Part shown: piece after piece, positions 49,247-56,235 of the stretch
Layout: each line of letters opens with the position of its first letter
How positions within the stretch are numbered: the first letter of the stretch is position 1
Origin: an uncultured Acidobacteriota bacterium
GTDB taxonomy: Bacteria > Acidobacteriota > Vicinamibacteria > Vicinamibacterales > 2-12-FULL-66-21
DNA: 64,000 bases
Reading direction: 5' to 3'
NCBI GenBank assembly: GCA_963847125.1
Contig: CAWJYM010000004.1
Span: 3,309,663-3,373,662, forward strand
Notes under the pieces: model-generated
What the model was told of the DNA's origin: nothing
The model's input: only the letters and a program-made list of their open reading frames with translations
Databases searched by the model: none
Translations under genes and position numbers: made by a program

Positions 49247-50313
49247 TTACACCGTGTGCGCGATGGCCGCGGCCTGCTCGGCTGCCGCCATGCGCGCGTG
49301 CACGTCCGGGTTCTCGGCCTCGACGAGCGCCTGCGGGATCTCGACGCCCATCATCTTCCATTGCGCGTTCGCGAACTTCTGCAGCGTCGCGATGTGCGCG
49401 GCGTGCAGATGGCCGAAACGACCCTGCAGCTTCAGGTACTCCGCCACGGGACGCATCGACCTGCGGACGGAAACCGTAGTCGTACGCGCGCGCCTCCGGG
49501 TTCCATTCCCAGACGGGAAAGAGGCCGCATTCGACGACCAGACGGCCGAGGTCGATCGACCGTGGCGTCTCGTAGACGAAGCCCTTCTGGCATGGCGTAT
49601 ACATGAGGACGAACGCCGCGCCGCGGTGATTCAGCCCCTTGCGGACCTTGTTCATCAGGTCGATCGGGTAGCCGACGCTGGCAGTGGCCACGTAGCAGTG
49701 CGGATGGCCGGCGGCCATCATCCGCGCCAGATCCTTCGGGAACAGCGTCTTCGCCTTCCGGGACCTTCGGTCCGGGCGGCGAGAACGTCGTCATCCCGCC
49801 GTACGGCGTGCGCGACGACGCCTGAATGCCCGTGTTGGCGTACTGCTCGTTGTCGTAGCAGATGATCAGACAGTCGTGGTTGCGATAGAGCGCTCCCGAC
49901 ACCGACGCCAGGCCGATATCGGACGCGCTGCCGTCGCCCGCCTCGCAGATGATGTTGGGGAACTTTCCCTTCCACTTGCCCTTCCGGATCATCGCCTCGT
50001 AGGCGGCGGCGACGCCCGCGGTAAAGCTGCCGGCGCTGCCAATCTGCGTATGCGCCCAGGGCACGTTGTACGGCGTGCACAGGTACGAGCTGTTCGCGAC
50101 ATACATGCACCCCGTCGGACCGACCAGGATCGTGTTGTCGCCCGCCGCCTTGCTCGTGATCCGGTACTGGATCGACGGGCCGCAGCCGGCGCACGTCCGA
50201 TGGCCCGGCACGAACGGCTCGGTCGCCGGAAGGTCCGGGTTGTAGAACCGGGCTCCGACGTTCGGGCTGCCGAGCAGCGGAAGCATCTGCCGTTCGATTT
50301 CAATGGTTGGCAT
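49247..50313 (-). pseudogene. porB: 2-oxoacid:ferredoxin oxidoreductase beta (TPP-binding) subunit with two apparent +1 frameshifts (~49755-49765, ~49455-49465)
   Basis: Three consecutive ORF pieces carry the beta subunit. The first runs from [14 protein letters not shown] through GDGSASDIG to [10 protein letters not shown]. The second reads [28 protein letters not shown]...[10 protein letters not shown]. The third reads [16 protein letters not shown]... Confidence 0.8.
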
Positions 50314-50327
50314 TCGTATCTCCGAAG

Positions 50328-50371
50328 GCAGCCCTGAAGGGCTGCGCTGCGAGGCAGGCCTGAAGGCCTGC
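50328..50371. repeat. Twin intercistronic hairpins GCAGCCC-tgaa-GGGCTGC and GCAGGCC-tgaa-GGCCTGC between porA and porB
   Basis: There are two perfect 7-bp stems with identical 4-nt loops (50328-50345 and 50354-50371) inside the 59-nt porA-porB spacer. Confidence 0.75.
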
Positions 50372-53398: not shown

Positions 53399-54060
53399 CA
53401 GTTCCCCGCGCTCGTGACGGCCGACGCGTTCAGCGTCAGCACCTGCAACGCGTCCCAGCCCGCCCGGAACGCCGCCTGGTTCGAAATCATCGGTTCGATG
53501 TTGTCGCGGTTGACGATGCCTGTCGTCTTGACCACCGCGGCGATGAGCGGCGCCGCGATGTCTGGCGCGATCGCCTTGCTCCGCTCGGCCGCGCCTTCGG
53601 TCGAGAGGCGATCGAGGCCCAGCTCGCCGAGCCGATAGTACAGCCATTTGTGATCGGCCAGCTTCGCCGCATCCACGCAGACGAGCTGCGCCAGCCGCTC
53701 GGGGCCCGGCACGAAGCGCAACATGTAGTCGGGCGCGTAGTGCGTGTTGATCACGAGCGTCCCGCCCGGCGGCATGCCGCGCATGTAGTCCCATCCCTTC
53801 ACCATCGTCCCCTCGACGAGGACCACGACGTTGGGATGCTCGTTCTCGTAGGTCAGCGCGTGCTCGATCTCCGAGTCGCTGAGCCGGCAGTACTTCCGCG
53901 TCGGCGCATTGGTCCGATCGGGGTTGTCGACGTAGTTCTCCATCGCCTGCGTGAACTTGCCCTCCTTGCGGCCCGCCATCGCGACGGAGTTCACGATGTC
54001 GCGTCCTTCCTTGTCCATGATGATGCCGCGGGTCCAGACGGTCAGCTCGACATAACTCAT
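53398..54060 (-). CDS. 2-oxoacid:ferredoxin oxidoreductase gamma-like subunit (divergent)
   Basis: The 220-aa layout resembles POR gamma (N-terminal nucleotide-like loop region, VVVLVEGTM...GGTLVINT). It lacks a canonical GRGGQG. It is tightly coupled: ATGA with the upstream stop and TGATG with the next start. Confidence 0.6.
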   Translation of the reverse strand: MSYVELTVWTRGIIMDKEGRDIVNSVAMAGRKEGKFTQAMENYVDNPDRTNAPTRKYCRLSDSEIEHALTYENEHPNVVVLVEGTMVKGWDYMRGMPPGGTLVINTHYAPDYMLRFVPGPERLAQLVCVDAAKLADHKWLYYRLGELGLDRLSTEGAAERSKAIAPDIAAPLIAAVVKTTGIVNRDNIEPMISNQAAFRAGWDALQVLTLNASAVTSAGN

Positions 54061-56235
54061 GACGGATCCTTCGCCTCTTCGTTCGGGGCGATGAAATCGC
54101 TCCAGCGGACCTCGAGACGCTTGTCGCTTCCCTGCCCGTGACAGCGATCGATCGCGACGAGCATCGCCTTCTTGCACAGGCTCTCGATATCGGCGCCCGT
54201 CCGCCCCTCGGTGCGGCGGGCCAGCTCCGCGAGATCGACGTCCGCCGCCAGCGGCGCCCGGCGACAGTAGAACCGGGCGATGGCTTCGCGCGCCGCGGCA
54301 TCGGGTTCCGGGAAGTTCACCACGTAGTCGAAGCGCCCGCTGCGCATGAGCACCGGATCGACGCGCTCGAGCCGGTTCGTCGCGGCGAGCAATATAACGC
54401 CTTTGACGTCGCCCAAACCGTCGATCTCGCGCACGAGCTGGCTCAGGATTCGCGGGTAGATTCCCGCCGAGGCCTGGTGCTCCGCGGCCGACATCGGTCA
54501 GCCGCGGCGCGAGGGCGTCGATGGTGTCGAAGAACAGGAGGCAGGGCGCCGCCCGGCGCGCCTTCTTGAAGACGCTGCGGAGCGCCTTCTCCGATTCGCC
54601 CAGCCATTTCGAGAAGAGCTGCGGGCCGTCGACGGCAATGAGCGGCAGACCCGTCTCGCCCGACAGCGCCCGCGCCATCGTCGTCTTTCCGGTTCCGGAG
54701 CGTCCCGTGAAGAGGATGCCGCGCGGCGTCGTCAAACCAACCTGCTCGTACACGTCGTCATGCACGTGGCCGTGCTCGACGATGGCGCGCAAGAGCCGCT
54801 TGATCTCGTCGAGTCCGCCCACGGCGTCGAAGCGGATGGCGCTTTTCTCGAGCAGGAATTCGCGCGTGGCGCTGGGCTCCACTTCCTTCAGCCCCTGAAG
54901 GAAGTCCTCCGCCGTCACGACCAGGGCGCCGAGCTCCGCGCGGTCGGCATCGCCGGCGCGGCTCGAGCTGGTCGACAGAAAGCGCCGGAGCGCGATGATG
55001 CCGACTTCCTGGCAGAGCGCCTCCAGGTCGGCGCCGACGAAGCCGTGCGTGTGCTCCGCGATCTCCTCGAGCCTGACGTCCGGGGCCAGCGGCATGGCGC
55101 GCGTGTGGATCCGGAGGATCTGGAGCCGGCCGGCCGCGTTCGGCACGCCGATCTCGATCTCGCGATCGAAGCGGCCCGGTCGCCGCAGCGCGGGATCGAG
55201 CACTTCGGGGATGTTCGTGGCCCCGATGACGATCACCTGGCCGCGGGCGACGAACCCGTCCATCAGGCCCAGCAGCTGCGCGACGACGCGCTTTTCGACT
55301 TCGCCGACGACCTCGGCGCGCTTCGGCGCGACGGCGTCGATTTCGTCGATGAAGATGATCGCGGGCGCGGAGCGCGCGGCCTCCTCGAAGACTTCGCGGA
55401 GCCGCGCTTCGCTCTCGCCGTAGAACTTGCGCATGATCTCCGGTCCGTTCAAATGGATGAAGTGGACGCGGCTTTCGGCCGCCACCGCGCGAGCCAGGAG
55501 CGTCTTGCCCGTCCCCGGAGGCCCGTGCAGCAACACGCCCTTGGGCGGCAGGATGCCGAGCCGCTCGAAGATGCGGACGTTTTTGAGGGGCAGCTCGATG
55601 ATCTCGCGCACGCGCGCGAGCTCCCGCTCGAGGCCGCCGACGTCTTCGTACGAGATGCCCGGCGCCTGCGCCGTGGATTGATCGCCTTCGACGACGCGCA
55701 GATCGGTGCGCCGATCGATGAGGACCGGACCGGACGGAATCGTGCGCTTCACCTGGAAGTTCACGGCCTTGGCGAACGTCGGCACGCGGACGATCGCGCC
55801 GGTGATGACGGGGACGCCGCGCAGATCCTCGAGGATCCGCTCCGGGCTGATCGCCGTCGGCGTCGATCCGCCGACGCTCGCGAGCCGGACCGAGACCGCG
55901 GCGCCGTGCTCGACGCGGGTGACCGACACGAGCTCCTGGAGGCCGGCGCCGCCGTTGCCGCGCACGGTGCCGTCAATCTGGATCGTCCCCGGTTCCGCGG
56001 GCGCCTGGAGCTCCGCGCGCGCGACCGCGACCAGCCGCCCCGTGATCTGGAGCACGTCGCCCGGCCGCGCGCCTATCCGGACGAGATCCGGCGCGGCGAG
56101 ACGGGCCACGGCCCGGCCGACGTCGTCGACGTGGGCTTCGGTCACGCGCAGCGTGACATTCGCCCCGAACAGCGTGGCGCCTTCGTTCTTCGGAAGCTCA
56201 GGGATGAGCCCGTCGGGAGGGGGGAACGCGGTCAT
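54057..56235 (-). pseudogene. Cdc48/VAT-type double-ring AAA+ ATPase with one apparent +1 frameshift in D2 (~54489-54503)
   Basis: An N-domain is followed by D1 ([55 protein letters not shown]). D2 reads FTGRSGTGKTTMARAL, LLFFDTIDALAPR, and then, after the frame break, SAAEHQASAGIYPRILSQLVREIDGL...LAATNRLERVDPVLMRSGRFDY. Confidence 0.85.

Follow-up and report, generated by a model that had tools for sequence, protein, structure and literature searches.

The 64,000-nt stretch analysed here (hereafter the window, whose positions serve as coordinates throughout) belongs to contig CAWJYM010000004.1 of an uncultured Acidobacteriota bacterium and carries on its minus strand a highly conserved 2-oxoacid:ferredoxin oxidoreductase operon, in which the reading frame is broken at six places in four adjacent genes. 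Judged from sequence comparison, these breaks are very probably an artefact of assembly or consensus building, that is, residual single-base insertion errors of a long-read metagenome assembly that would not exist in the DNA of the organism. This explanation is favoured because the extra bases are absent in relatives, the affected genes show no relaxed selection, and breaks of this type are common in Nanopore-only metagenome-assembled genomes (MAGs) as compared with short-read MAGs. The source assembly is most probably Nanopore-only, and the real genome most likely has an intact, translationally coupled operon. A preliminary description of this DNA had considered assembly error, very recent inactivation of the operon and, as the least likely option, recoding; the evidence from relatives, selection and sequencing technology leads to the same ranking, with the first option in the lead.

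Six single-base insertions in four genes of one operon

The G+C content of the window is 64-71%, and about 90% of third codon positions are G or C, so that reading frames can be traced without homology in a plot of G+C at codon position 3 (GC3) by frame. Codon-usage Viterbi decoding was used to determine the gene order and gave, from 56235 to 49247, the following row, in which adjacent genes overlap at their start and stop codons, as is seen in operons with translational coupling:

54057..56235, minus strand: Cdc48-like AAA+ ATPase with CDC48_N and two AAA domains; 725 aa after removal of one base
53398..54060, minus strand: intact 220-aa open reading frame (ORF), with the ATPase gene on one side and the GltD-like gene on the other and translational coupling to each; no Pfam match
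51562..53398, minus strand: GltD-like flavoprotein (Fer4_20 and Pyr_redox_2) with a C-terminal 4Fe-4S cysteine-motif region; 611 aa after removal of one base
50373..51562, minus strand: porA (POR_N and PFOR_II); 395 aa after removal of two bases
49247..50313, minus strand: porB (TPP_enzyme_C); 354 aa after removal of two bases

The gene names are backed by Pfam for the whole row except the 220-aa ORF, which may be a gamma-like subunit. Decoding and the GC3 frame plot placed six +1 switches on the minus strand, near 54486, 52596, 50866, 50828, 49757 and 49450, and at each of them the upstream frame lacks a nearby stop codon. The Cdc48-like ATPase, for example, is read in frame 0 to about 54493 and then in the +1 frame from 54491 to the stop codon at 54059-54057. 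When one base is removed per site, single unbroken ORFs of 725, 611, 395 and 354 aa are obtained, all with the expected Pfam domains.

The closest relative found is a Microflora Danica MAG of an uncultured Acidobacteriota bacterium (locus L001), which shares 96% DNA identity with window positions 45320-56730 and has intact ORFs for all genes of the row, including a 725-aa orthologue of the Cdc48-like ATPase. Comparison with this locus revealed exactly six 1-nt coding insertions in the window, at 54492, 52593, 50873, 50831, 49752 and 49461, and no coding deletion; all remaining indels (insertions or deletions) within the 11.4 kb are intergenic or located at gene ends. The six +1 switches in four adjacent genes that the preliminary description had reported are thus found alike by Viterbi decoding, GC3 plot and alignment. 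The ranges that it gave for the junctions are right in four cases and off by 1-3 nt for the first junction of porA and the first of porB. The junctions are as follows:

Junction 1, 54491..54493, minus strand: extra G (mRNA sense) in GAT[g]TCGG, within the D2 AAA domain of the ATPase; absent in L001 and in locus L036
Junction 2 (GltD), 52593..52597, minus strand: one extra base within GTC[G]AAG[C]TCGG
Junction 3 (porA), 50872..50873, minus strand: one extra base in GAGGG[cg]TCC
Junction 4 (porA), 50831..50834, minus strand: 41 nt downstream of junction 3; window sequence TTCGCCGCGGATC
Junction 5 (porB), 49752..49755, minus strand: window sequence GGAAGGCGAAGACG
Junction 6 (porB), 49461..49462, minus strand: G doubled to GG in CGCA[g]GTCGATG; the only slippage-like case of the six

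Spontaneous 1-nt insertions normally duplicate a neighbouring base, and bacterial indels are biased towards deletions. At five of the six sites the inserted base is unlike both of its neighbours, which indicates that these insertions did not arise by replication slippage.

Absence of the extra bases in relatives

A scan of one genome per species yielded 80 loci with this operon. The extra base was absent in every relative whose sequence spans the site concerned (13, 68, 80, 69, 74 and 68 loci for junctions 1 to 6, respectively), so that the window stands alone at each of the six sites. Furthermore, tblastn aligned GltD and PorA over at least 97% of their length in a single high-scoring segment pair in 142 loci each, and GltD is uninterrupted in all 80 loci from Joint Genome Institute (JGI) metagenomes. 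Metagenomes were also scanned for a relative closer than L001, and the best match had only 90% amino-acid identity.

Selection and the spectrum of mutations

If the insertions were real, the operon would have been inactivated very recently in the population, and the four genes would be young pseudogenes. The breaks do stand in the given sequence, where each of them truncates or scrambles a conserved protein, and two further genes of the window are broken as well. The picture of conserved ORFs cut by 1-nt indels, with intact orthologues elsewhere, is also that of bacterial frameshift pseudogenes. The window differs from such pseudogenes in several respects, which together render this explanation unlikely. 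The ratio of nonsynonymous to synonymous substitution rates (dN/dS) relative to L001 lies between 0 and 0.17 in every frame segment, including those downstream of the breaks. Amino-acid differences in the four broken genes, polarised with about 39 other relatives, comprise 8 replacements derived in the window and 9 derived in the intact L001, so that the window has no excess. Both results indicate that constraint has not been relaxed in the window lineage. The usual ratio of indels to substitutions is about one tenth, and six neutral indels would imply tens of additional neutral substitutions, none of which were seen; a ratio far above the usual one would be needed to account for this. Moreover, all six events are insertions and none is a deletion, contrary to the deletion-biased spectra of bacteria; five of the six are not of the slippage type; and the operon contains no nonsense mutation, larger deletion or insertion sequence (IS) element. 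The positions of the breaks point in the same direction, because they coincide with alleles specific to L001, the nearest relative, which would not be expected of independent mutations, and because the same type of break tracks sequencing technology among relatives.

Breaks and sequencing technology

The long-read MAGs of the Microflora Danica project are Nanopore-only and were assembled with Flye and polished in one Medaka round (PMC12313526). Nanopore-only assemblies keep frameshifting indels, especially at coverage below 40x (PMC9262707). As in these assemblies (PMC9262707; PMC12313526), conserved genes of the window are split by single-base indels that are absent in short-read assemblies of relatives.

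A blastx screen was applied to determine how frequent such breaks are among the relatives. Each of the 80 loci and the window was compared with the ORFs of all other loci, and only breaks backed by most homologues were kept; the majority-support filter was added because the unfiltered screen was noisy as a result of antisense and read-through ORFs. The classification of loci as long-read or short-read is our own reading of record titles and contig names. Breaks were found in 17 of the 43 loci from Nanopore-only Microflora Danica MAGs, which together hold 57 events, 43 of them +1. In the same screen only one of the 36 loci from short-read MAGs had a break, a single doubtful event. When the operon genes alone were considered, 10 of 43 Nanopore-only loci were broken and none of the 36 short-read loci (Fisher P = 0.0015). 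Breaks of this kind track sequencing technology.

At the DNA level, 1-nt insertions predominate among the events in the other Nanopore-only loci, and in 18 of 30 the inserted base is unlike both neighbours, which is the same signature as in the window. The breaks also clump, with four in 0.7 kb in locus L018, six in 4.6 kb in L014 and eleven in L050. The Nanopore-only MAGs of related Acidobacteriota thus resemble the window in having clumped breaks, mostly +1 insertions and often inserted bases unlike both neighbours. As 75% of the events are +1, the finding that six out of six are +1 has P = 0.18. The 17 Nanopore-only loci with breaks within about 20 kb, which include L003, L014, L018, L030, L050 and L056 and 11 others, come from GTDB species representatives.

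Hybrid alleles at the insertion sites

The alleles found at the insertion sites give an indication of how the extra bases may have entered the consensus. At junctions 2, 4 and 5 the 13-mer of the window consists of a prefix of the L001 allele and a suffix of the majority allele, which overlap by one base:

Junction 2: window GTCGAAGCTCGGC; L001 prefix GTCG; suffix of other relatives AAGCTCGGC
Junction 4: window TTCGCCGCGGATC; L001 prefix TTCGCC; suffix of other relatives GCGGATC
Junction 5: window GGAAGGCGAAGACG; L001 prefix GGAAGGC; suffix of other relatives GAAGACG

Three of the six insertions are located where the window and its nearest relative differ in allele. Clusters of differences between the two (at least three bases within 6 nt) occur four times in the four genes, three times at an insertion site. 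Residues unique to L001, namely A268 and M269 of GltD, G244 of PorA and G187 of PorB, lie at three of the six insertion sites; allowing for 17 such residues in 2085 codons, we estimate P < 3e-4 for this coincidence. At junction 3, the C of the majority GGC and the G of the L001 GGG stand side by side in a synonymous Gly codon, and at junction 1 the extra G, which is unlike both neighbours, is the base found in the next-closest relative. Since mutations arising independently in the window would have no reason to fall at the unusual alleles of a sister, a consensus of mixed haplotypes fits these data.

The local consensus may have mixed reads from two haplotypes that co-occur within one species, the first similar to L001 and the second with the alleles that are common among the other relatives. 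Where such haplotypes differ, especially by several adjacent bases, the consensus could keep one column from each of them and thereby gain a base.

The unusual alleles of L001 are located at about 8960-8975, 10725-10735 and 11775-11785 in the coordinates of that locus. They are lineage-specific and multi-nucleotide, and they occupy highly conserved positions; for example, VAMG replaces VKLG just ahead of a GGGN nucleotide-binding motif. These alleles may themselves be consensus artefacts, as L001 is also a Nanopore-only MAG.

Several points weigh against a consensus artefact of this kind. We infer the long-read origin of the window from its closest relative's being a Microflora Danica Nanopore MAG. 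Most classical Nanopore errors concern homopolymer length, and the six insertions as a set do not resemble these, only one of them being of that type. The hybrid-haplotype reading of junctions 1, 3 and 6 is no more than compatible with their sequences. When the pairwise alignment was made in the most parsimonious way, a strong cluster of neighbouring mismatches was seen at junction 2 only, and the test was at most suggestive. The reason for the local concentration of breaks is likewise a matter of choice among candidates: mixed haplotypes explain it best, and a dip in coverage or an unpolished chunk is possible. The extreme conservation of the operon, which might have drawn cross-mapped reads, is not supported as the cause, since by our tally the remaining Nanopore-only loci have nearly equal numbers of breaks in the flanks (29) and in the operon (28).

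Alternative origins of the extra bases

A different technical origin would be systematic basecalling errors at methylated motif sites, with the same positions miscalled in the window and in L001. This could account for the exact coincidence of junctions 2, 4 and 5 with unusual multi-nucleotide alleles of the lineage of L001, itself a Nanopore-only assembly. Such an origin is nevertheless very improbable, because no motif is common to the six sites or to the 30 insertions in other loci, and because methylation-linked Nanopore errors are mainly substitutions. Whether haplotypes were mixed or, as the weaker alternative, both Nanopore assemblies stumbled at the same places, the cause is technical either way.

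A common origin of all six insertions in a single recent event, as genuine changes of the DNA, is very doubtful. Abortive recombination between two diverged operon alleles, or the processing of mismatches between them, is one candidate for such an event; at each place where these alleles differ by several bases in a row, it would leave an overlap of one base. Were this true, a highly conserved 2-oxoacid:ferredoxin oxidoreductase operon would have been inactivated in a natural soil population of Acidobacteriota.

Sequence motifs at the junctions and the question of recoding

The preliminary description had pointed to a 10-mer shared by two junctions, and both of its positions were found again. 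The sequence TCGACCTGCG has just two occurrences in the window, 49456-49465 and 52596-52605, and is missing from the other four junctions. The inserted base takes different positions within its two occurrences, and the empirical probability that two of six random coding sites have a 10-mer in common is about P = 0.03. No 5-mer is common to more than two of the six junctions, and no flanking 3-mer was enriched once an independent set of insertions had been added to the six sites. The motif AGGTC / CGCAGGTCGA, which had been put forward as a common feature of the junctions, did not withstand comparison with relatives. According to the placement that these give, 49461 is the one site where the extra base falls inside AGGTC; at the GltD junction it follows the motif directly or by up to 4 nt, at the first porB junction by about 7-10 nt, and at the +1 break near 3.2 kb described below it is probably further downstream. 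The motif is not shared beyond two sites. A CGA context preceding the insertion, seen at three of the six sites, was rejected as well, as it did not hold up among the 30 insertions of the independent set.

Programmed +1 ribosomal frameshifting or bypassing at six sites, to which the same sign of all six shifts, the 10-mer common to two junctions and, as in the prfB type, the need for a +1 change to obtain the full protein would lend themselves, has a negligible probability: programmed sites are conserved, and no relative is shifted at any of these sites, including one at 96% identity; the junctions share no slippery or hungry-codon motif and no upstream stimulator, and the shift points lack the in-frame stop codon, the rare codon and the sequence of slippery codon followed by stop or slow codon that would be expected; similar shifts occur at random positions, in other Nanopore-only MAGs only; and six recoding sites in four genes of one operon are, to our knowledge, without precedent.

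Other breaks in the window and clustering

The preliminary description had listed two breaks elsewhere in the window, a +1 break at about 3.2 kb and a -1 break at about 23.7 kb, and decoding and homologues support both of these and no other:

3205..3222, plus strand: +1 break in a gene for a PD40/beta-propeller-like protein; four homologues follow one frame to about 3205 and the next frame from about 3222
23685..23725, minus strand: -1 break in a gene for a Mo-binding subunit of the xanthine dehydrogenase family, in a variable linker where the window is 10 nt shorter than loci L161 and L162

The closest homologues found for the first gene are only about 57% identical, and the exact extra base is not placeable with them; the reading VQY-VRSVGLQ matches the homologues better than does removal of a G of the upstream AGGTC. 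The second break is not a simple 1-nt event and is consistent with a length difference of three codons together with one missing base. It is the only frame-breaking difference over 16.8-27.9 kb relative to a short-read contig of 92-93% identity. Two further candidates were discarded. The one at 17832 is a natural overlap of about 60 nt between the allantoinase and allantoicase genes (17832-17892), which is annotated likewise in L161 and L162, and the one at 27627-27691 is a gene boundary.

The claim that breaks are clustered in the operon was also upheld, as six of the eight breaks lie within 5031 nt (P = 4e-4 under uniform placement).

Consequences for the use of the assembly

As a matter of biology the breaks are most likely unimportant, since the operon is probably intact in the organism. 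Their effect on annotation is larger. Gene callers will output the ATPase and the following ORF as one 945-aa fusion, along with fragments of GltD, PorA and PorB, and pathway inference would wrongly score a central 2-oxoacid:ferredoxin oxidoreductase as missing. The comparison of sequencing technologies may be of interest to genome users in its own right, as about 40% of the examined Nanopore-only representative loci are broken, as against almost none of the short-read ones. The errors are mostly non-homopolymer +1 insertions, which is relevant to the use of these representatives in studies of gene content.

Further observations on the operon and its neighbourhood

The spacer between porA and porB contains a 27-nt insertion relative to L001, at 50326-50352. 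It resembles a near-tandem duplication (TTCAGGCCTGCCT / TTCAGGGCTGCCT) and holds a 7-bp palindrome (GCAGCCC...GGGCTGC).

Downstream of porB, 11 bases of the window that L001 lacks (48884-48894) are located towards the 3' end of a conserved 117-aa ORF without Pfam match, encoded by the minus-strand gene from 49243 to 48807. The stop codon of the relatives is lost in the window, and the ORF runs about 30 codons into a response-regulator gene that starts at 48861. The tail of this ORF is variable among relatives, so that either natural variation or another consensus error is possible.

The gene row itself (ATPase, 220-aa ORF, GltD-like gene, porA and porB) is shared at 78-86% DNA identity across many orders of Acidobacteriota, as seen in the window and loci L001-L160. 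The same row was also found in MAGs labelled Solirubrobacterales, Eremiobacteraceae, Steroidobacteraceae and Deferrimicrobiaceae, a distribution suggestive of mis-binning of contigs or of horizontal transfer.

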